A stretch of DNA of 64,000 nucleotides from Nocardioides sp. (lineage in GTDB: Bacteria > Actinomycetota > Actinomycetes > Propionibacteriales > Nocardioidaceae). Position 1 is the first letter of the stretch. Every line of letters starts with the position of its first letter. This document shows positions 35,674 to 46,197 of this stretch, piece after piece. Under the pieces are notes generated by a model. The model was not told the DNA's origin. It did no database searches and saw only the letters and a program-made list of their open reading frames with translations. Location of the stretch: contig NZ_JACIXG010000012.1 of NCBI RefSeq assembly GCF_014360585.1, positions 3,196 to 67,195 of the forward strand. Reading direction: 5' to 3'. The translations under genes and the position numbers were made by a program.

Positions 35674-37323
<1,650 letters not shown>

Positions 37324-37376: not shown

Positions 37377-37413
37377 AAAGAGGGCCCCTCCTTCGGGAGG
37401 GGCCCTCTTTCTC
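37377..37413 (+). terminator. intrinsic terminator after groEL
   Basis: AAAGAGGGCCCCTCC-ttcg-GGAGGGGCCCTCTTT followed by CTC; A-run and T-run on both sides (bidirectional type). Confidence 0.85.
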
Positions 37414-37426
37414 GTCTATCTGTGGA

Positions 37427-37485
37427 TAGTCCGGGACGTTCCTGTCCGTTACTGGCTGGTAGAGGGACAAAAACGTCCCGGACTA
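37427..37485. repeat. nested palindromic (REP-like) element H1
   Basis: TAGTCCGGGACGTT (37427-37440) / AACGTCCCGGACTA (37472-37485), perfect 14 bp. Inner TGTCC/GGACA; loop core TTACTGGCTGGTA. Homologous to 42912-42978. Confidence 0.75.
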
Positions 37486-37535
37486 CCTGCTCGGTTGATC
37501 CTCCTTGTCGGTGGTGGGTGGCAGGATCCGCCGGC

Positions 37536-37928
37536 ATGACAGTCGAGGTGACGGTGCGGGATGAGACCACCGCAGGAGACGTACTGCAGGAACTGGCACT
37601 GCAGCTCGAGGCGGAGCAGGTGACGGTGCGCGAGCTGATCATCAGCCGGGTGGCATCGGAGGTTCGGGCGTACAACGCAGGACAGGTGCTCGGGGGTTTC
37701 CGCGGCTTGGTTCAGCCGCCCGAAGCAGAGCTGGCGCTCAACGGTCCGCGAGAGCCACGCATGGTCGACGCGGAGATCCAGGCGAAGGTCGCCGTCGAGG
37801 CGTTCGAACGAGGCCGATTCCTGCTGCTCGTCGACGACCGTCAGGTCACCGAGTTCGATGAACGGGTTGTTCTGCGCACTGGGTCGGCGGTGTCCTTCCT
37901 CAAGCTCACCCCGTTGGTGGGTGGCTGA
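37536..37928 (+). CDS. hypothetical 130-aa protein ending in a diglycine (…SFLKLTPLVGG-stop); possible beta-grasp/ubiquitin-like (ThiS/MoaD-like) C-terminal module
   Basis: C-terminal 35 residues (LLLVDDRQVTEFDERVVLRTGSAVSFLKLTPLVGG) resemble the ThiS/MoaD tail pattern. Stop overlaps the start of the next gene (TGATG). Fold assignment is inference only. Confidence 0.55.
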   Translation: MTVEVTVRDETTAGDVLQELALQLEAEQVTVRELIISRVASEVRAYNAGQVLGGFRGLVQPPEAELALNGPREPRMVDAEIQAKVAVEAFERGRFLLLVDDRQVTEFDERVVLRTGSAVSFLKLTPLVGG

Positions 37929-39181
37929 TGACACCGATCGCTCAGTCCGTCACCGAGGATGCCGCGGGCCAAGTGGTCGAGGCGCTCATCGCCGAGACGG
38001 CACAGCGGGCCAGTGGGCCGGCCATCCCGGCAGGGCTTCGCGCGTCGAGCGTCTGGGCAGACCTGCAGAAGTCGCCGGACAGCGTTCGTGCGGCCGTGGT
38101 GATCTGTGCTTTGCGCCGCATGGGTGAGCTGAACCAAACCGGGAGTTCCTGGTCACGGGGCAGCAACGTCGCATCGGGCATCGTGACGGGGATGCTGCGT
38201 CGGCAGATCGCGTTGAGTCCCGGTGACAGGGTCGATCTGATTGCTTCGCTGCTGGGCGGCAGCGAAGCCGAGCCGACCCATGGCGCGCCCTGGACCTACC
38301 ACGTCGAGCATCTCGTCAAGCCGGTCCTCAGGGCGCTGGAACGCGGCGGCGACGTCGATCGGATTCCTGAGGAGAAGAAGCTCCTCCGGGTGCTGCGCGA
38401 GGCGCTCCGCCAACCGTGGATGGATGCTGAGCGGAAGCGTTGGATCCATCAGATCGACCAGTTGCTCAGTGACTCCGATGAGCCGTTGATCCCCGCAGGG
38501 CCTTGGGCGGCCGCGATGCAGCAGGGGATCGCGTCCCAACCTCCGACGGTTGCGGCCGCGGGGTCGGCGGCGATCGGTGTCGCCGCGTCGTCCGCTGGGG
38601 CCAAGCCGACCGCGGTGTTCACCAAGAAGGTCGATGGCCTGATCGACGCCCACGACGCGGAAGATCTACGTACGGCCGTGGTGATGCTGCTCGAGGTGTC
38701 TGTGCTCCCGGTCTCGGCAGCCCGTGGACAGGTCGACGGCATCACAGGTGATGTGCTGCGCCGCCTGTGCTGGATCGCGGCGTCGCTGCCAGCCGACACC
38801 CGCTTGGCCACTGCGGTGGGAGGTTGGCTCATAGCCGGGTGGGCGAAGGTTCCGGGGTTCGGCCCGGTGAGCCAGCGGGTGGCAACCGGCGCCGCTTGGG
38901 CCTTGGCTCGCCTCGGAGATCTGGGTGCCGGGGAACTAGGACGGGCTCGGGCTGTGCTCAAGCAGCCGCAGGCCGTCAGGTCGGTCGATGCGGCGATCGA
39001 CGAGGCTGCGGAACGGCTCGGGATCCCTCGAGAGGAGTTCGAGGAGCGGGTGGTGCCGACGTACGGCTTGGACGTCGGAGCGCGGAGGGAGTTGGCTCTC
39101 GGAGAGCACACGGCGGTCCTGGCGTACACCGCCGGCAAGGTTGGCATCACGATCGTGGCGGCGGACGGGAAAACCCGGTAG
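37928..39181 (+). CDS. N-terminal part of a DUF4132 (MolR-like) protein, ended by an in-frame TAG
   Basis: Helical-repeat-like 417-aa ORF. TAG at 39179-39181 is followed in the same frame by ACA GTG... of the next ORF. Confidence 0.6.
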   Translation: MTPIAQSVTEDAAGQVVEALIAETAQRASGPAIPAGLRASSVWADLQKSPDSVRAAVVICALRRMGELNQTGSSWSRGSNVASGIVTGMLRRQIALSPGDRVDLIASLLGGSEAEPTHGAPWTYHVEHLVKPVLRALERGGDVDRIPEEKKLLRVLREALRQPWMDAERKRWIHQIDQLLSDSDEPLIPAGPWAAAMQQGIASQPPTVAAAGSAAIGVAASSAGAKPTAVFTKKVDGLIDAHDAEDLRTAVVMLLEVSVLPVSAARGQVDGITGDVLRRLCWIAASLPADTRLATAVGGWLIAGWAKVPGFGPVSQRVATGAAWALARLGDLGAGELGRARAVLKQPQAVRSVDAAIDEAAERLGIPREEFEERVVPTYGLDVGARRELALGEHTAVLAYTAGKVGITIVAADGKTR

Positions 39182-39184
39182 ACA

Positions 39185-40393
39185 GTGCCAGCCGCGGTGA
39201 AGCGCGACTTCGCCGAGGAGCTCAAGGCGCTCAAGGTACAGGCGAAGGATGTCGTGGCGATGGTGGCCGCGCAGCGGATGCGGCTCGAACGGCTACTGCT
39301 CGATGACCGGGAATGGGACGCCGCCGTCTGGCGGGAGCGCTACGTCGACCATCTGCTGGTCTCCGTTCTCGCGCGCAACCTGATCTGGCAGGTGGACAAC
39401 GGGGCGTCGCTCACGGCCGTCGTCGCGTTCGATGGCGAGCTGCGCGACATCGACGGTGAGCTTGTCGAGGTCGCCGCGACGGATCGCATCCGGCTGTGGC
39501 ACCCGGCGACCGTGCCGACCGAGGAGGTCGGCGCCTGGCGTCGACGGGTCGAAGATCTGGGCGTCGTGCAACCGTTCAAGCAGGCACATCGCGAGGTCTA
39601 CCTGCTGACGGCGGCCGAGGAACGTACGGACCTCTACTCCAACCGCTTCGCCGGACACATCATCAGGCAGCACCAGTTCGCGGCGCTTGCTCGCGGGCGT
39701 GGTTGGCGCTATCGCCTGCAAGGCGCGTTCGACGCACCGGACGAGCAAGCACATATCCAGCTGCCGCAATACGGGCTGCGCGCCAGCTTGTGGGTCGACC
39801 GGCCCTGGGGTGCGGACGACGACTGGAACGACACCGGCATCTTCAACCATGTGCTCACCGACCAGGTCAGATTCACCACTGATCGCGATGCGGTGCATCT
39901 GCGAGATGTGCCGGTGCGGGTCCTCAGCGAGGTGCTGAGGGACGTCGACCTCTTTGTCGGGGTCGCCTCGATCGGCAGCGACCCTGCGGGGCAGGACAAC
40001 GGTGGCGCGCGTCGCGACGCCTGGGGCGACTACTGGAGCTCGTACTCCTTCGGCGAGCTCGGTGCGGCTGCTGAGGTACGCAAGGATCTGCTCTCCCGCC
40101 TGCTGCCCAGGCTGGCGATCGCGGATGTGACGCGGATCGAGGACCGGTTCCTGGTGGTGGAGGGGCGGCTACGGCGCTATCGCATTCATCTGGGGTCGGG
40201 CAACATCCTGATGGCGCCCAACGACCAGTACCTGTGCATCGTGCCGGGCCGGGGTGAGAAGGGCGCCGATGGTGTGATGCTGCCGTTCGAAGGCGACCAG
40301 CTGCTCAGCGTCATCCTCTCCAAGGCGATGCTGCTGGCGAGCGACGACAAGATCACAGACACGACGATCACCTCCCAGATCGTCCGACCGTGA
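39185..40393 (+). CDS. DUF4132 domain protein (C-terminal part of the split MolR-like gene)
   Basis: RLWHPATV, QPFKQAHREVY, RYRIHLGSGNILM...YLCIVP blocks that I recognise as DUF4132. Same frame as 37928-39181. Confidence 0.7.
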   Translation: MPAAVKRDFAEELKALKVQAKDVVAMVAAQRMRLERLLLDDREWDAAVWRERYVDHLLVSVLARNLIWQVDNGASLTAVVAFDGELRDIDGELVEVAATDRIRLWHPATVPTEEVGAWRRRVEDLGVVQPFKQAHREVYLLTAAEERTDLYSNRFAGHIIRQHQFAALARGRGWRYRLQGAFDAPDEQAHIQLPQYGLRASLWVDRPWGADDDWNDTGIFNHVLTDQVRFTTDRDAVHLRDVPVRVLSEVLRDVDLFVGVASIGSDPAGQDNGGARRDAWGDYWSSYSFGELGAAAEVRKDLLSRLLPRLAIADVTRIEDRFLVVEGRLRRYRIHLGSGNILMAPNDQYLCIVPGRGEKGADGVMLPFEGDQLLSVILSKAMLLASDDKITDTTITSQIVRP

Positions 40394-40396
40394 CCA

Positions 40397-40443
40397 CAAG
40401 GTCGAAGATCGCAGCCACCTGATGACTGTGATCTTCGACCTTG
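40397..40443. terminator. 14-bp perfect hairpin after the DUF4132 gene
   Basis: CAAGGTCGAAGATC (40397-40410) / GATCTTCGACCTTG (40430-40443), 19-nt loop, no T-run. Confidence 0.45.
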
Positions 40444-40479
40444 GTGCTCCGCTCACGGGTGCGGGTTACTCTCGACGGC

Positions 40480-41511
40480 ATGAGTCCGAAGGCGATGTCG
40501 GCGCTGGCGATCTCAGCTGTGCTGCTCGCTGGATGCGGCGGTGAGCCGGCCACTGCGCCGTCGTCTCCCGGAACGACACCGTCGGCCTCGGCGAGCCCGG
40601 CCACACCCTCTCCGTCCCCGTCCGAGACGCTGCCGCCGGTGACCGACGAGGTCTCGCTCCCGCAGCTGATGCGCGAGGAGTTCCCGGGCGGTGAGGTGAA
40701 GGTGCTGCGGGAGTCGGGGAGCACGGACGCGTATCGGCGCTTCGAGGTCAGCCATCCGAGCGGCCCGCTCACGATCACCGGCGTGCTCTTTCGGCCGCGC
40801 GGGGCGGGGCCGTTCCCCGGCGTGGTCTTCGCGCACGGCCACATCGACACTGACATCTACGTCACCGGCCAGGGCCTTCGGCGCGAGCAGGACCGGCTGG
40901 CGCGGGAGGGCTACGTCGTCCTGCACACCGACTACCGCGGCCACGCCGGGTCATCCTCCATCCCGGAGGGCACCGAGGAGGACGAGAGCCGGCTCGGCTA
41001 CACCCGGGACACCATCAACGCGGTCCAGGCGATGAAGAGACTCCCGTACGTCGACCCCGACCGCACCGCCCTGCTCGGCCGCTCCATGGGCGGGGGAGTG
41101 GTGATGAACGCGCTCGTCGCCCAGCCGGACCTGGTGCGGGCCGGCGTGACGTACGCATCGGTCTCCTCCGACATCGTCGACAACATCAACCGGTGGGCGG
41201 TTCCGTCGCGGCCCGAGGAGGTTGCCCGGCTCTACCGGCAGCACGGCGATCCCGAGCAGCAGCCCGAGTTCTGGGAAGGGCTGTCGGCCCGGACGTACTT
41301 CGACCGCATCGAGGTCCCGGTGCAGATGCACCACGGGACCGATGACGAGTCCTGCCCGATCAGATGGGCCTACACGACCCGGGACCTGATGGAGGCCGCG
41401 GGAGTACGTCAGCGCCTCTGGGTCTACCAAGGTGAGCAGCACGCCTTCGGGCCGCAGTGGGACCTCTCGATCCGGCGCGTCATCGGGTTCCTCGATCGCC
41501 ATCTGGCATGA
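40480..41511 (+). CDS. alpha/beta hydrolase, S9 prolyl-oligopeptidase/dienelactone-hydrolase-like lipoprotein
   Basis: Lipobox LLAGC; GRSMGG nucleophile elbow; HGTDDE and EQHAF (Asp/His) blocks. Confidence 0.78.
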   Translation: MSPKAMSALAISAVLLAGCGGEPATAPSSPGTTPSASASPATPSPSPSETLPPVTDEVSLPQLMREEFPGGEVKVLRESGSTDAYRRFEVSHPSGPLTITGVLFRPRGAGPFPGVVFAHGHIDTDIYVTGQGLRREQDRLAREGYVVLHTDYRGHAGSSSIPEGTEEDESRLGYTRDTINAVQAMKRLPYVDPDRTALLGRSMGGGVVMNALVAQPDLVRAGVTYASVSSDIVDNINRWAVPSRPEEVARLYRQHGDPEQQPEFWEGLSARTYFDRIEVPVQMHHGTDDESCPIRWAYTTRDLMEAAGVRQRLWVYQGEQHAFGPQWDLSIRRVIGFLDRHLA

Positions 41512-41768
41512 CCTGACCAGGCGATGAGGAGGGGCCCAGCGGTCCCACTTTTTTGGGGACTTTCGACACTGTCTCGACAACAGCTCGGTAACGCAACATT
41601 GGTGCTCCACACACAGTGGCCGACTGCGGGGAAGCGTCTGGATCTGGGGGGCTTTGAAGCCCAAGGGAGTATCCGGGTGAAGTTCTGCAGCGGCGGGCGG
41701 GGTCAGGGTTCATCAAAGCCGGGGCCCCGCCTGCGTGTGTCAACCTGGTCCCTGAATGGCACCCAGGG

Positions 41769-42369: not shown

Positions 42370-42900
42370 ATGATCGCGGGGCTGCTGCTCGCCGCCGGCG
42401 CCGGGCGGCGGATGGGTGGGCCCAAGGCACTCGTCGACGACTGGCTGGTCCGCTCGATCGAGGTGTTGCGCGACGGCGGCTGCGACGAGGTGCTCGTCGT
42501 GCTCGGGGCCGCCGCGGACGAGGCGCGAGCACGGCTCCCGGAGGGACAGCAGGTCGTCGTCGCCGCAAACTGGGACGAGGGGATGGGAGCATCGCTTCGG
42601 GTCGGTCTGGAGACGCTCGGGCCGGACGTGGAGGCTGCCGTGGTTCACCTGGTCGACCTGCCGGATGTCGGTGCCGATGTGGTCTCACGAGTGGTCTCGA
42701 CGGGCACTACCACCGGGTTGGCGCGCGCGGCGTACTCGGGCGTCCCTGGCCACCCGGTGCTGATCGGCCGCGACCATTGGTCCAGGGTCATCGAAGCCGC
42801 GGTCGGCGACGAAGGGGCCCGCCGCTACCTGAGGTCCCACGACGTACGCCTGGTGGAGTGCGGCGACCTGGCTGGCGGGCGGGACGTCGACAGTCGGTGA
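42370..42900 (+). CDS. MobA/MocA-like nucleotidyltransferase (molybdenum cofactor cytidylyltransferase-like)
   Basis: LLLAAGAGRRMGGPKAL N-terminal motif; LVDLPDV. Next to the Mo-hydroxylase maturation genes. Confidence 0.75.
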   Translation: MIAGLLLAAGAGRRMGGPKALVDDWLVRSIEVLRDGGCDEVLVVLGAAADEARARLPEGQQVVVAANWDEGMGASLRVGLETLGPDVEAAVVHLVDLPDVGADVVSRVVSTGTTTGLARAAYSGVPGHPVLIGRDHWSRVIEAAVGDEGARRYLRSHDVRLVECGDLAGGRDVDSR

Positions 42901-42911
42901 CGGGCGATGCC

Positions 42912-42978
42912 GGGGTAGTCCGGTAGCGACCTGCCTATTACTCGCCGGTAAATGGGCAGTTCGCTACCGGACTACCCC
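42912..42978. repeat. nested palindromic (REP-like) element H2
   Basis: GGGGTAGTCCGGTAGCGA (42912-42929) / TCGCTACCGGACTACCCC (42961-42978), perfect 18 bp. Inner CTGCC/GGCAG; loop core TTACTCGCCGGTAA. Homologous to H1. Confidence 0.75.
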
Positions 42979-43023
42979 GCCGCCCAACCACCAACCAACG
43001 ACACGCGCTCTACGCTGAGGACC

Positions 43024-43905
43024 ATGGAGTCGCTGACGCCCGAGATGATCGCCGACCGGCTGGCGGCGACGGGCTATCTGGCCGATCCGGAGCTGGCGAC
43101 GGTGACCTTCCTCGCGCTGCGGATGCAGCGGCCGCTGCTGCTCGAGGGCGAGCCCGGCACCGGCAAGACCGCGCTCGCCGAGGCGGTCGCCGAGGCGCTG
43201 GACCTGCCGCTGGTGCGGCTGCAGTGCTATGAGGGGATCGATGCCACCCAGGCGCTCTACGACTGGGACTTCGCCCGCCAGATCCTGCATCTGCGCGCGC
43301 TCGAGGCGACAGGTGGCACGGCCGAGGTCGAGGAGGCCGAGAAGTCCCTCTATGACGAGCGGTTCCTGCTCGCCCGGCCCGTGCTGGCCGCGCTGCGACA
43401 GGCGCCGTCGGTGCTGCTCGTCGACGAGATCGACCGGGCCGACGACGAGTTCGAGGCGTTCCTGCTGGAGGTGCTGTCGACCTATCGGGTGACGATCCCG
43501 GAGTTCGGGACGATCGCCGCTGTGGTCCCGCCGATCGTCGTGCTCACCTCCAACCGCACCCGCGAGCTCCACGACGCCCTCAAGCGCCGCTGCCTCTACC
43601 ACTGGATCGACCACCCGGGGCTGGAGCGCGAGATCGAGATCGTACGCAGCCGAGCCCCCGAGGTCGCCGACGAGCTCGCCCGCCAGGTGGTCACGGTGGT
43701 CCAGCAGCTGCGCAGCGCAGAGGGCGCGAGCGCGCTGCTCAAGCCTCCCGGAGTCGCCGAGACGCTCGACTGGGCGCGCGCCCTGCACCACCTCGGCTCG
43801 ACCGAGATGGACCTGGAGAGCGCCGCGGCCACGCTCGGAGCGCTCGTGAAGCACCGCGAGGATGCCGATCGCGTCCGGGTCGCCCTGGACCGGCTGCTGG
43901 CATGA
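43024..43905 (+). CDS. MoxR-family AAA+ ATPase (CoxD-like)
   Basis: Walker A GEPGTGKT, Walker B LLVDEIDR, LTSNRTRELHDALKRRCLY. Start ATG 43024; the ORF-track ATG 42952 lies in the H2 loop. Confidence 0.88.
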   Translation: MESLTPEMIADRLAATGYLADPELATVTFLALRMQRPLLLEGEPGTGKTALAEAVAEALDLPLVRLQCYEGIDATQALYDWDFARQILHLRALEATGGTAEVEEAEKSLYDERFLLARPVLAALRQAPSVLLVDEIDRADDEFEAFLLEVLSTYRVTIPEFGTIAAVVPPIVVLTSNRTRELHDALKRRCLYHWIDHPGLEREIEIVRSRAPEVADELARQVVTVVQQLRSAEGASALLKPPGVAETLDWARALHHLGSTEMDLESAAATLGALVKHREDADRVRVALDRLLA

Positions 43906-45083
43906 GCGACTTCTCAGGCAATAGCTGCACTTCTCAGGCATTCCAACGCCAGAGAAGTGCAGCGATACCCGGTGAACCGGGTATTCCGACCGCGATCCTG
44001 CTCGGCTTCACCCGAGCACTCCGAGCAGCAGGGGTCTCGGTGACCCAGGACCGCGCCCACGGGTTCCTGCAGGCGACGGCGATCGTCGGCGCCGGCGACC
44101 CGGTCGCGACCTACCGAGCGGGAAGGGCCACGTTGTGCGCCGGCCCGGACGACCTGCGCCGCTACGACCAGGTCTTCGAGGCCTGGTTCGGGTCGACGAC
44201 GACGCTGCCGAAGCCGCAGGGGCCGCCGCGTACGGTCTCGGTCTTCTCCACCCTTCCCGAGACCGAGCCGCAGGCGGGGGAGGAGGCTGCCGAGGGCCCC
44301 GACGAGGTCGTCCGGGCGCGCGCCAGCGATCTGGAGACCCTGCGTCACCGGGACGTCGCCGACCTCGACCCGGCCGAGCAGGAGCGGGTGGCCGCGCTGA
44401 TCGCGCGCCTCCGGCCGCGAGCCCCGCGACGACGGACCCCGAGGCAGGACCCCTGGCGGCGCGGGCGGGTCGACGCCCACCGCACCCTGCGGGCCAGCCT
44501 GCGACACCTCGGTGAGCCGGCCGGGATCCACTACCGCAGGCGCGGCGAGCGGCCGCGCCGCGTCGTGTGGCTGATCGACGTGTCCGGGTCGATGAGCGCC
44601 TATGCGGACGTCTTGCTGCGAGTCGCCCACCGGGTGGTCTCGACGAGCTCGACCACGAGGGGCGGCGCGGTGTTCACGATGGGGACCCGGCTCACCAACG
44701 TCACTCGCGCGCTGCGCCACCGCGATCCCGACCGAGCACTCGCCGCGGCAGGCGAGACGGTGCCCGACTGGTCGGGCGGGACCCGCCTCGGTGACAACCT
44801 GCAGGCGTTCCTGCAGCGACACCAGGGGCTGGCCAGAGGCGCCGTGGTGGTCATCGCGAGCGACGGCTGGGAGCGCGGCGACCCGACCCTCCTCGAGGAG
44901 CAGACGGCGAGGCTGCATCGTCTCGCTCATCGGGTGGTGTGGGCCAACCCACACCGTGGCAAGGTTGGATATGAACCGCTGCAGCGAGGCATCGTCGCGG
45001 TGCTGCCGCACGTGGATGACTTCGTCGCCGGGCATTCGCTGGCGACGTACGAGGAGTTGGTGGAGGTGATCGCCCGTGCGTGA
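43902..45083 (+). CDS. VWA domain-containing protein (CoxE-like)
   Basis: LLGFTRALRAAGVSVT...; MIDAS-like LIDVSGSM. ATGA overlap with the coxD-like stop. The first 28 or so codons cover an AT-richer repeat/hairpin segment. Confidence 0.82.
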   Translation: MSDFSGNSCTSQAFQRQRSAAIPGEPGIPTAILLGFTRALRAAGVSVTQDRAHGFLQATAIVGAGDPVATYRAGRATLCAGPDDLRRYDQVFEAWFGSTTTLPKPQGPPRTVSVFSTLPETEPQAGEEAAEGPDEVVRARASDLETLRHRDVADLDPAEQERVAALIARLRPRAPRRRTPRQDPWRRGRVDAHRTLRASLRHLGEPAGIHYRRRGERPRRVVWLIDVSGSMSAYADVLLRVAHRVVSTSSTTRGGAVFTMGTRLTNVTRALRHRDPDRALAAAGETVPDWSGGTRLGDNLQAFLQRHQGLARGAVVVIASDGWERGDPTLLEEQTARLHRLAHRVVWANPHRGKVGYEPLQRGIVAVLPHVDDFVAGHSLATYEELVEVIARA

Positions 45084-46197
45084 CGTGCTCGAAGATCTGA
45101 TGAAGTGGTGGGAGTCCGGCGAGACCGTGGCGGTCGCCACCGTGGTGGCGACGTTCCAGTCCGCACCCAGGCCGCCGGGAGCCTCGATGCTCGTCGGCCC
45201 CGACGAGACCGCGGTCGGCTCGGTCTCCGGCGGATGCGTCGAGGGCGCCGTCTACGAGGTCGCCCGCGAGGTCGCCGGGTCCGGGGTCCCGGAGCTCAAC
45301 CGCTACGGCGTCTCCGACGACGACGCCTTCTCCGTCGGTCTGACCTGCGGTGGCATCCTCGACGTCTTCGTCGAGAAGGTGTCGAGGGAGACGTTCCCCG
45401 AGCTCGGCGAGCTCGCCGAGGACGTACGCAGCGGCAGCCCGGTCGCGCTCGCGACCGTCATCGAGCATCCCGACCCCGAGATCCTCGGGCGCCGCGTCCT
45501 CATCCGCCCAGAGGGGGTCAAGGGGTCGCTCGGCAGCGCGCGGATGGACGACGCCGTCCACGACGACGCGCTCGGGCTCCTGGCTCAGGGCACCAATCAG
45601 ACCCTGTCCTACGGCATCGACGGCGAGCGCCGCGGCGAGGGCATGCGGGTCTTCGTCTGGTCCTTCGCGCCCAAGCCCCGGATGCTGGTCTTCGGCGCGA
45701 TCGACTTCGCCGCCGCCGTCGCCCGCGTCGGTGCGTTCCTCGGCTATCACGTCACCGTCTGCGACGCCCGCCCGGTCTTCGCGACCAACTCCCGCTTCCC
45801 CGAGGCCGACGAGGTCGTCGTCGACTGGCCCCACCGCTTCCTCAACCAGGAGGTCGAGGCCGGCCGCATCGACCAGCGCACCGTGATCGCCGTCCTCACC
45901 CACGACCCGAAGTTCGACGTACCTCTCCTCGAGGTCGCCCTCCGCCTCCCCGACATCGCCTACGTCGGTGCGATGGGCTCGCGTCGCACCCACGACGACC
46001 GCCTCGCCCGTCTGATCGACGCCGGCCTCACCGACGAGGAGATCGCCCGTCTGAGCAGCCCCATCGGTCTCGACCTCGGCGCCCGTACGCCGGAGGAGAC
46101 CGCCATCTCGATCGCCGCCGAGATCATCGCCGGCCGCTGGGGCGGCAGTGGCGAGCGTCTGGCCATCACCGCCGGACGGATCCACGAAGAGCGTTAG
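45076..46197 (+). CDS. XdhC/CoxI family molybdenum-cofactor insertion chaperone
   Basis: GSVSGGCVEGAV, LVFGAIDFA Rossmann-like, GAMGSRRT. GTG start overlaps the coxE-like stop. Confidence 0.88.
   Translation: MRDVLEDLMKWWESGETVAVATVVATFQSAPRPPGASMLVGPDETAVGSVSGGCVEGAVYEVAREVAGSGVPELNRYGVSDDDAFSVGLTCGGILDVFVEKVSRETFPELGELAEDVRSGSPVALATVIEHPDPEILGRRVLIRPEGVKGSLGSARMDDAVHDDALGLLAQGTNQTLSYGIDGERRGEGMRVFVWSFAPKPRMLVFGAIDFAAAVARVGAFLGYHVTVCDARPVFATNSRFPEADEVVVDWPHRFLNQEVEAGRIDQRTVIAVLTHDPKFDVPLLEVALRLPDIAYVGAMGSRRTHDDRLARLIDAGLTDEEIARLSSPIGLDLGARTPEETAISIAAEIIAGRWGGSGERLAITAGRIHEER

Follow-up and report, generated by a model that had tools for sequence, protein, structure and literature searches.

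A Gly-Gly-terminated beta-grasp protein and its DUF4132 partner: a widespread two-gene module with a putative DNA-damage promoter

The gene pair and its surroundings

A small-protein gene on the forward strand (37536–37928) of a 64-kb window of Nocardioides sp. DNA, the whole stretch analyzed here, encodes 130 amino acids, of which the last, KLTPLVGG, are followed directly by TGA; a fold model places the product among the MoaD/ThiS-like beta-grasp proteins. The stop codon (37926–37928) and the ATG of the next gene, at 37928, have one base in common—an arrangement that, like the ORF and its ending, an earlier note on this DNA had described correctly. A 168-residue version starting from GTG at 37422 was rejected, as homologues are about 130 residues long and the promoter motif discussed below would fall within the longer ORF.

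The partner gene is divided by an in-frame TAG (39179–39181, forward strand). Its N-terminal part of 417 codons (37928–39181) is poorly conserved and homologous to the partner N-termini in related loci, while the highly conserved C-terminal part of 402 codons (39185–40393) contains the Pfam domains DUF4132 (PF13569, about 39185–39706; 171 bits, E = 2.6e-50) and DUF7737 (PF24879, about 40070–40381; 135 bits, E = 1e-39), each scored against a cut-off of 27. The earlier note's recognition of DUF4132 in the C-terminal half was therefore right, but what it took for a protein of the 820-residue class is no single ORF in this window, being split into 417 and 402 residues. In the closest relative, locus L081, the TAG is replaced by AAG (Lys) and an intact gene of 821 residues carries both domains; no other indels separate the two genes, and synonymous changes outnumber nonsynonymous ones in both halves. 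A similar, independent split of the DUF4132 partner gene occurs in Hymenobacter fodinae. The TAG may have arisen recently as a nonsense mutation, may reflect a sequencing error, or may mark a split that is tolerated, and the module in the window may be inactive or may have its large subunit expressed as two pieces.

Upstream, a terminator-like hairpin of groEL (37377–37410, forward strand), with perfect 15-nt arms, a 4-nt loop and a T-rich tail, forms the 5' boundary of the module. Between this terminator and the promoter motif lies an inverted repeat (37427–37485) with 21-nt arms of 90% complementarity and an RNA fold of -41.5 kcal/mol (z = -6.5), which is identical in sequence in L081 and matches no Rfam family. 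Downstream, an S9/alpha-beta hydrolase gene identified by Pfam (40441–41511, forward strand) may be co-transcribed with the pair here; the gene is not conserved with the module, being syntenic only in L081 and not recurrent in 80 related loci.

A terminator-like hairpin (41531–41546) and a gene for a 197-aa hypothetical protein follow, and beyond them stand genes whose identities, as proposed earlier (mocA, MoxR, VWA, xdhC), are borne out by Pfam: a MobA-like NTP transferase, a MoxR-type AAA protein, VWA_CoxE and XdhC, the MoxR and VWA genes being of the CoxD/CoxE type, adjoining XdhC and starting 2.5 kb downstream. The earlier note had placed the pair at the head of this cluster of molybdenum-cofactor (Moco) maturation genes, and one could accordingly cast the small protein as a sulfur carrier, or the DUF4132 protein as a regulator, for MocA, CoxD, CoxE and XdhC. 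The shared strand and a distance of about 2–6 kb, the same synteny in the close relative L081, the MoaD-like fold of the small protein and the historical name of MolR, "molybdate metabolism regulator", all lend themselves to this idea. However, the pair is set apart from the cluster by two unrelated genes and a terminator-like site, the Moco-type neighbors recur in 0 of the 80 related loci, and the promoter motif belongs to the DNA-damage class; moreover, moeA and moeB of Deinococcus radiodurans are unresponsive to DdrO depletion, unlike the drA0165–drA0166 operon that encodes the homologous pair (PMC8533742). The neighborhood survey largely refutes a role in Moco maturation, which we regard as very improbable: the link is local synteny only, and the pair is unrelated to those genes.

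A conserved Gly-Gly family and its DUF4132 partner

The small protein belongs to a family of 2486 matches (1261 representatives at 50% identity), patchily distributed across phyla with variable flanking genes. It has no counterpart among Pfam, NCBIfam or PADLOC families, and two of its UniRef clusters already carry the name "MoaD/ThiS family protein". Of roughly 430 homologues, which come from at least 10 phyla, about 99% end exactly in Gly-Gly: 120/120 and 143/146 in two homologue sets, 98/99 in the Deinococcus branch, and every complete copy from 63 metagenome loci. The two glycines are spelled by 16 different codon pairs, GGCGGC being the most frequent, so conservation acts at the protein level; it is far beyond chance.

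Might the glycines nonetheless be an artefact, either of nucleotide-level selection, with GGNGGN serving as a Shine-Dalgarno sequence, or of a chance ORF in high-G+C DNA? GGAGGN does stand directly before the partner start in 21 of 80 loci, and spurious ORFs abound in such DNA. Yet besides the synonymous diversity, Gly-Gly is retained in loci that have DUF4132 upstream or lack it, as well as in Bacteroidota loci; the family is broad and its fold confidently modeled; and peptides of the D. radiodurans member DR_A0165 have been detected by MS (PMC9650054). Codon diversity and proteomic detection refute the artefact as a whole, to which we assign a negligible likelihood.

The AlphaFold2 model of the small protein (pLDDT 85) is a beta-grasp fold, in agreement with the prediction of the earlier note. 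Its best Foldseek matches in the PDB are MoaD (6jbz_B and 6jc0) and human MOCS2A (5mpo), with 6jbz_B reaching E = 1.6e-3, probability 1.0 and a TM-score of 0.62 by target; Ubl domains, SUMO and ubiquitin rank below, and all other top matches are likewise beta-grasp proteins. No Pfam family matches at E ≤ 0.01 and the curated threshold of ThiS (PF02597) is not reached, ThiS being the commonest weak match at E ≤ 10 (11 of 62 members, best E 0.0055), while PDB searches with single sequences and profiles returned no relatives. Aligned to E. coli MoaD by hhalign, the family gives a nonsignificant E of 0.07, although the C-terminal 45 residues match GG-to-GG. The small protein differs from MoaD in a helical insert of about 45 residues and a tail two residues longer, and its conserved GLVQP loop is modeled with low confidence.

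A survey of gene neighborhoods shows how close the association with DUF4132 is. Seen from the small-protein side, DUF4132 adjoins in 75 of 80 genome loci; seen from the DUF4132 side, the small-protein gene adjoins in 56 of 57 metagenome loci. In most loci the start of the partner falls between about -11 and +60 nt relative to the small-gene stop. When neighboring genes of the 80 loci were clustered, DUF4132 emerged as the only recurrent neighbor, with no recurrent E1, E2, JAB, RING, rhodanese, MoxR or VWA gene, and tblastn with MoeB and ThiF found no match in the 64-kb window or in the 80 loci. The recurrent adjacency that the earlier note proposed as a check is thus present in both directions, the Gly-Gly end is conserved in orthologues, and its observation that E1, E2 and JAB genes are missing from the locus stands. 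A single small gene can sit beside two tandem DUF4132 paralogues. An apparent DUF4132–Ubl fusion of 969 residues (P0265) was set aside as a frameshifted gene call, its middle being rich in Arg, Pro and Gly and seemingly out of frame, so that it is no Rosetta-stone fusion. The beta-grasp Gly-Gly protein and the DUF4132 protein very probably form a dedicated module, one that is self-contained, widespread and uncharacterized.

The partner's conserved core, DUF4132 together with DUF7737, looks like an enzyme, because some 60 residues are invariant across 51 homologues, among them clusters of His, Cys, Asp/Glu and Lys/Arg; they include one cysteine (Cys351, in YLCIVP) and a Gly-rich HLGSGN loop. 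The C-terminal part is modeled well (pLDDT 85), and Foldseek of the DUF4132+DUF7737 model against the PDB and BFVD gave only noise (TM-score <0.2 by query, low probabilities). No credible sequence relative was found in the PDB, no family in Pfam, NCBIfam or PADLOC covers the N-terminal half, hhalign found no relation to MoeB or MoaE (MoaE probability <2%), and no fold or motif of the nucleotide-binding or E1/E2-like kind came to light. Given neither similarity to MoaE or MoeB nor a known fold, no catalytic chemistry can be assigned to the partner.

The arrangement recalls the MoaD–MoaE, ThiS and CysO pairs, in which a small beta-grasp protein with a free C-terminal Gly-Gly is likewise encoded right beside a dedicated larger partner and translationally coupled to it. 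The differences from MoaD–MoaE are nevertheless clear: the partner here is DUF4132+DUF7737 rather than MoaE, genes of the cofactor pathway are not conserved near the small-protein loci, and the module is predicted to answer to DNA damage rather than to cofactor demand.

Signs of DNA-damage control

Ahead of the pair stands a PafBC-type (RecA-NDp) promoter motif, TGTCGG-N10-CAGGAT (37506–37527, forward strand), which matches every upper-case position of the published consensus tGTCgg(N10)tA(N3)T (PMC8635444). It is the sole match to the relaxed motif in 64 kb, where 0.05 would be expected. Its GTC lies 29 nt ahead of the small-gene ATG, the motif thus predicting an mRNA with no leader or almost none, and strict motifs occur at -29/-28 in five of five Micromonospora and Streptomyces loci. 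The finding of this candidate promoter element 29 nt before the start codon, both in the window and in the loci from Micromonospora and Streptomyces, is new. On balance we lean toward the pair being DNA-damage-induced in this lineage. Upstream of the nonactinobacterial loci there was no consistent LexA, Cheo, cyanobacterial or RDRM pattern, nor did a crude de novo dyad search find a common operator.

D. radiodurans offers an experimental counterpart. By its profile match (E = 4e-11) DR_A0165, whose tail is LTALAGG, is a member of the small-protein family, and DR_A0166 carries DUF4132 and DUF7737, albeit as a giant of 1626 residues with an N-terminal DUF5724, unlike the partner of about 820 residues here. 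The operon that encodes this pair has been shown by experiment to be under DNA-damage control: it has an RDRM site and is DdrO/IrrE-dependent, and the DRA0166 protein rises with mitomycin C (PMC8533742). DR_A0165 itself has been studied as SEP068184, a stress "small peptide" for which its authors already noted a predicted MoaD/SAMP1-like structure; the protein increases after gamma irradiation and H2O2, pulls down with thioredoxin, and is described as a negative regulator with protein interactors, co-immunoprecipitation having yielded interactors rather than conjugates, while its deletion has only a mild phenotype with increased H2O2 resistance (PMC9650054). The authors treated it as a Deinococcus-specific peptide acting via thioredoxin and drew no tie to the Gly-Gly terminus or to DUF4132. 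Nor did the literature on DUF4132, DUF7737, WGR+MoxR+SWIM and yehI/L/P/Q yield a paper joining the small-protein family, or any Ubl, to DUF4132. The earlier note's view that a Ubl or sulfur-carrier partner for DUF4132 had not been described therefore holds for the link, but not for the small protein, since DR_A0165 was already in the literature.

E. coli provides a more distant comparison. MolR/YehI has the DUF4132 domain in common with the partner, YehI being without DUF7737, and yehI does lie beside yehL (MoxR) and yehP (VWA), as the earlier note stated. The yehLMPQ cluster (MoxR, VWA, SWIM) has no Gly-Gly beta-grasp partner, however, and its WGR, MoxR and VWA neighbors are not conserved with the module across the 80 loci. 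YehK was considered as a Gly-Gly partner and rejected, as it ends in NQEIE and does not match the profile; a small ORF upstream of a DUF4132 gene on an Acetobacter plasmid proved equally unrelated to that profile. A LexA-like box precedes yehF, and molR is a listed SOS gene (PMC6590174). Together these cases suggest that family members have come under DNA-damage control through three different regulators: PafBC, DdrO/IrrE and SOS. The two genes would be translationally coupled and, in Actinobacteria, driven by a PafBC-type promoter, which would place the module in the DNA-damage/stress response rather than in molybdenum-cofactor maturation.

A stress-linked pair of this kind could also be a mobile conflict module, whether toxin–antitoxin or antiphage defense. 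The patchy distribution and variable flanks, the copies on large plasmids or chromids, and the better survival under H2O2 when the small gene is deleted would all suit such a role. Yet there is no PADLOC family match, a phage collection held no copies, the four plasmid records with the small gene are all typed non-mobilizable, the neighborhoods of the 80 loci share no recurrent integrase or transposase gene, and the regulators are those of the chromosomal DNA-damage response; we consider this highly improbable.

How the pair might work

The mechanism that we favor builds on the gene pair, the fold class, the conserved Gly-Gly, the linkage and the promoter motif, all documented above. The small subunit would be a beta-grasp protein of the MoaD/ThiS kind that needs its free C-terminal Gly-Gly in order to function, and the large subunit a dedicated partner of about 820 residues with the conserved DUF4132+DUF7737 core. 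The two proteins would associate in a complex, with the flexible PLVGG tail of the small one entering a conserved pocket of that core in the way that MoaD enters MoaE. A housekeeping E1 of the MoeB/ThiF/MoeZ type, encoded at another site, would activate the terminal carboxylate in trans, first to an acyl-adenylate and then to a thiocarboxylate, and the DUF4132 enzyme would spend the activated small protein on some substrate. An E1 serving several carriers in trans has precedent in Thermus TtuC and Haloferax UbaA, in the TtuB and SAMP systems respectively. With no E1, rhodanese or JAB gene in the window or the 80 loci, the activation step is one that we infer; this particular chemistry is a tentative proposal that may well prove wrong, whereas the explanation in its entirety comes somewhat closer to an even call, if still on the doubtful side.

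One alternative dispenses with carboxylate chemistry altogether: the beta-grasp protein would regulate, stabilize or adapt the DUF4132 protein noncovalently, and Gly-Gly would be kept because small residues thread a narrow pocket. A neighborhood without activation machinery would be expected here, as would the low-confidence GLVQP loop if that segment orders upon binding, and the Deinococcus description of a negative regulator with protein interactors is in keeping with it. In the distant DUF5724–DUF4132 branch, moreover, two Bacteroidota small proteins end not in Gly-Gly but in G-R-L-W and G-S-I-W, tails that would have to be processed before any adenylation and that fit tail docking better than obligatory carboxylate chemistry. 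On the other hand, a stop right after Gly-Gly in about 99% of homologues across phyla is a hallmark of a used carboxylate, and docking alone would allow extensions far more often than the two seen. Noncovalent binding is accordingly possible, but we think it rather doubtful.

Alternatively, DUF4132/DUF7737 may itself be a new activating or ligating enzyme for the Gly-Gly carboxylate, forming conjugates during DNA damage in an E1-independent Ubl pathway; adenylation or thioesterification could be envisaged, with the invariant Cys351 in YLCIVP and the HLGSGN loop as candidates. Near-obligate linkage with no further conserved neighbor, the lack of an E1 near any locus, a Gly-Gly that is exactly terminal as in mature ubiquitin-like modifiers, the enzyme-like invariant residues of the partner with their single Cys and Gly-rich loop, and the tandem DUF4132 paralogues that can accompany one small gene are what such a pathway would lead one to expect. 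Several observations weigh against it: neither a nucleotide-binding nor an E1/E2-like fold or motif could be detected in the partner, the loci contain no linked gene for a deconjugating peptidase, the Deinococcus co-immunoprecipitation gave interactors rather than conjugates, and the best structural matches are sulfur carriers, not modifiers. SAMP/UbaA, TtuB/TtuC and the E1/E2/JAB operons likewise have a beta-grasp protein ending in Gly-Gly, but Ubl operons bring with them E1, E2, RING or JAB genes that are absent from the window and the 80 loci, and, in contrast to Ubl conjugation systems, there is no sign of conjugates for the small protein. Such self-sufficient activation is unlikely in our estimation, and its broader form—a new class of Gly-Gly-activating enzyme driving an E1-independent Ubl or sulfur-transfer pathway that bacteria of different phyla would turn on through LexA, DdrO or PafBC when their DNA is damaged—slightly more so. 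If this were true, the old molR phenotype would reflect cross-talk between a DUF4132 protein and carriers of the MoaD type.

DUF4132 is a large and widespread family, including E. coli MolR and YehI, that has gone without an assigned function for decades. The near-constant pairing of its DUF7737-bearing branch with a MoaD-like Gly-Gly protein, taken with the response of members to DNA damage, yields a concrete, testable hypothesis, and Deinococcus and Streptomyces are model organisms that carry the pair. SEP068184, published as a D. radiodurans "species-specific peptide", is in fact a member of a family spanning many phyla, with an obvious partner in DR_A0166. Should the carboxylate be chemically used, the module would add a new pathway, of the sulfur-carrier or Ubl type, to the DNA-damage response of bacteria.

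Layout of the locus and an interrupted partner gene

The small gene (37536-37928, forward strand) encodes 130 residues ending in ...SFLKLTPLVGG, and its TGA has one base in common with the ATG of the partner ORF, just as the earlier note described. The 820-aa DUF4132 partner claimed there is upheld in its domain, which Pfam recognizes, but not in its integrity: an in-frame TAG at 39179-39181 splits the gene into a first piece of 417 aa (37928-39181, forward) and a second of 402 aa, in frame with the first, which begins at GTG 39185 and ends at 40393 (forward). DUF4132 lies at the extreme start of the second piece (Pfam, E 2.6e-50, profile positions 7-179) and DUF7737 at its end (Pfam, E 1e-39); neither the small protein nor the 417-aa piece has any Pfam match.

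The closest relative, L081, reads AAG in place of the TAG and has an intact partner gene of 821 aa beside a small protein 92% identical to that of the window; its gene order is the same, with the acetyltransferase and groEL genes at one end of the shared stretch and the NTP transferase gene at the other. Because the two partner sequences are colinear without indels, and synonymous exceed non-synonymous differences in both halves (37:23 and 48:22), the TAG is taken as either a single recent change or a sequencing error; it may be a recent nonsense mutation or a tolerated split. Hymenobacter fodinae (L088 4890-5060) carries an independent in-frame TGA, 8 codons upstream of the TAG position and in place of a conserved Trp, where RefSeq annotates two genes of 430 aa and 405 aa. 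A break at this boundary between domains may be tolerable, though two cases are no proof of it.

Upstream of the module lies groEL (35689-37323), which ends with a terminator-like hairpin. A strong hairpin or inverted repeat at 37427-37485 (21-nt arms, -41.5 kcal/mol, z = -6.5), just 5' of a promoter motif discussed below, has the same sequence in L081 and matched no Rfam family; its possible roles are operator, insulator or second terminator.

A conserved pair, untied to cofactor genes

Across one representative genome per species, a relative of the small protein is encoded in 523 stretches, of which we kept 80 loci, which span Planctomycetota, Bacteroidota, Actinomycetota, Cyanobacteria, Pseudomonadota, Deinococcota, Nitrospirota, Verrucomicrobiota, Gemmatimonadota, Chloroflexota and Armatimonadota. 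The DUF4132/DUF7737 part is present in 75 of the 80 (tblastn); the partner starts -11 to +60 nt from the stop of the small gene in most loci, and immediately precedes the small gene in the same orientation in six. In the reverse approach, starting from DUF4132, we scanned metagenomes with the alignment of the partner; this yielded 80 loci, 57 with enough upstream DNA, and 56 of these 57 have the small gene in the orientation of the partner. The adjacency first noted at a single locus therefore recurs from both directions. Three loci hold two DUF4132 paralogues, in tandem downstream of the small gene (L018, L036) or flanking it (L066), so that several partners may share a single small subunit. 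An upstream homologue of the small protein also accompanies the DUF5724-DUF4132-DUF7737 giants of D. radiodurans, Bacteroides finegoldii and Chondrinema. No small GG partner was found at E. coli YehI, which has DUF4132 and lacks DUF7737, at a 30%-identical Acetobacter plasmid copy or at a second Chondrinema paralogue. Two Planctomycetota loci with full flanks (L010, L047) carry "solo" small GG genes with no adjacent DUF4132 gene; a partner gene may lie at another site in the genome.

The earlier note placed the pair at the head of a Moco-maturation cluster. Such genes do lie downstream: MobA-like NTP transferase, MoxR-type AAA (CoxD-like), VWA_CoxE and XdhC genes form a compact array at 42382-46197, with adjacent ORFs overlapping at 43902-43905 and 45076-45083. 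A Moco-linked role for the pair would draw on this local synteny and on the MoaD-like fold described below, but two genes intervene, first one for an S9/alpha-beta hydrolase and then one for a hypothetical protein of 197 aa, with a terminator-like site between them (41531-41546), and the neighbors are not conserved: clustering of all neighboring ORFs across the 80 loci found none recurrent other than DUF4132. The genes at 42382-46197 are a separate cofactor-maturation unit without link to the pair, and the small protein and its DUF4132 partner behave as one unit untied to molybdenum-cofactor genes. A patchy distribution might suggest instead a defense or toxin-antitoxin module, against which stand the lack of any PADLOC match and of phage copies.

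Terminus, fold and a possible mechanism

A word-indexed search recovered 2486 relatives of the small protein, and an exhaustive HMMER search 1261 cluster representatives at 50% identity, nearly all of ~130 aa. The GG end, on whose conservation the earlier note had staked its claim, is found in 120/120 of the closest homologues, 143/146 remoter representatives (the other 3 seem to be truncated or frameshifted), 98/99 members of the Deinococcus branch and all complete copies reached from the DUF4132 side. Other invariant positions include D9, G14, R38, E42, a GLVxP loop, Q82, Q103 and F121. That the GG is a by-product of a Shine-Dalgarno sequence would have in its favor the Shine-Dalgarno-like GGAGGN of only 21 of the 80 loci; yet 16 different synonymous codon pairs are used, GGCGGC most frequently, and selection therefore acts on the protein. 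Beside DUF5724-DUF4132 giants of two Bacteroidota, the homologues at L090 2392-2811 and L092 229-654 end in ...LSGRLW and ...LAGSIW rather than GG. An apparent DUF4132-Ubl fusion of 969 aa (P0265) was rejected: its middle reads like out-of-frame translation, and a frameshift in the gene call has probably merged an upstream DUF4132 gene with the small gene.

AlphaFold2, given a 62-sequence alignment, models the small protein (pLDDT 85, pTM 0.75) as two N-terminal strands, a long helix, a low-confidence conserved loop, a helix, three short strands, a final strand and a free tail. The top Foldseek matches in the PDB are all beta-grasp, the fold that the earlier note anticipated, led by mycobacterial MoaD (6jbz_B; E 1.6e-3, probability 1.0, TM 0.62 by target) and including human MOCS2A (5mpo), PI3K Ras-binding domains, the TBCE Ubl domain, SUMO and ubiquitin. 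The likeness to ThiS and MoaD, noted there for the tail, is weaker in sequence: ThiS (PF02597) is the most frequent Pfam match, but a sub-threshold one (11/62 members, best E 0.0055), and hhalign aligns the last 45 residues to E. coli MoaD, GG on GG, also below threshold (E = 0.07). With beta-grasp structural matches and a sub-threshold sequence relation, the modeled protein resembles MoaD and ThiS in its shape and its ending, carries a helical insert of ~45 residues and lies outside the curated family.

The C-terminal 400 residues of the partner are strongly conserved (~60 invariant positions, n=51 sequences; H335, S338, C351, D253/D255 and K380 are among the invariant residues), with motifs that include LWHP, QPFKQAHRExY, YSNRFAxH, SExxRDxDLFVG, HLGSGN, YLCIVP and LPFEGD. 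Its model is confident (pLDDT 85), and searches of PDB structures, viral predicted structures and PDB sequences gave no credible relatives, nor did comparison with MoeB and MoaE. What is established here is that the two genes are paired, the fold of the small protein, its GG end and the motif in the promoter. Beyond this, the model that we infer and prefer is one in which the two proteins would form a MoaD-MoaE-like heteromer, the GG tail docking in the DUF4132/DUF7737 core and its carboxylate being activated by an E1 encoded elsewhere. E. coli MoeB, ThiF, ThiS and MoaD queries had no tblastn match in the window or the loci. That a linked E1 is found nowhere could mean that the DUF4132 partner is itself the activating enzyme, although no nucleotide-binding fold was detected in it. 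Alternatively the tail may only dock, with no carboxylate chemistry, as the two G-x-x-W tails would allow; the near-universal stop codon straight after GG speaks against this.

Pairs of a beta-grasp GG protein and its dedicated partner are already known. What is new is the DUF4132 partner, the lack of linked E1, E2 or JAB genes, and DNA-damage control. One family member has been studied earlier, with the family, the GG end and the DUF4132 link unrecognized, and our literature search found no paper connecting the GG small-protein family with DUF4132.

Probable control by DNA damage

A PafBC/RecA-NDp-type motif, TGTCGG-N10-CAGGAT (37506-37527), lies 9 nt before the ATG of the small gene. The PafBC consensus, tGTCgg(N10)tA(N3)T, combines a -26 element with a normal -10 element (PMC8635444). 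The motif is the single match to a relaxed form of the pattern in 64 kb, against 0.05 expected. All four Micromonospora loci and the only Streptomyces locus have the strict motif, always with GTC 29 or 28 nt 5' of the start codon, a distance shared by the window and L081; elsewhere in 175 loci a looser strict pattern occurs at only five other, scattered places. The motif implies a transcript induced by DNA damage, and its spacing predicts that this mRNA is leaderless, starting at or next to ATG 37536; the spacing also disfavors the GTG at 37422 as an alternative start that would lengthen the ORF.

In D. radiodurans, an RDRM site is visible in the sequence of the orthologous operon, drA0165-drA0166. 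DdrO depletion strongly derepresses this operon, and mitomycin C raises the level of DRA0166 protein only if IrrE is present (PMC8533742). DR_A0165 protein increases after gamma irradiation and H2O2, its deletion raises H2O2 survival, and it pulls down with a neighboring thioredoxin (PMC9650054). The pair there sits directly 3' of a YeeE/YedE-family gene and trxC (L085 1-1040), both sulfur- or redox-related, the thioredoxin being the reported pull-down partner.

In E. coli K-12, a near-consensus LexA box (CTGG-N8-ACAG, L083 6450-6465) stands 9 nt before the start codon of yehF, the WGR fragment of molR. The box fits the listing of molR among SOS genes (PMC6590174). Three unrelated damage regulators converge on DUF4132 genes, and this convergence is the strongest functional clue available.
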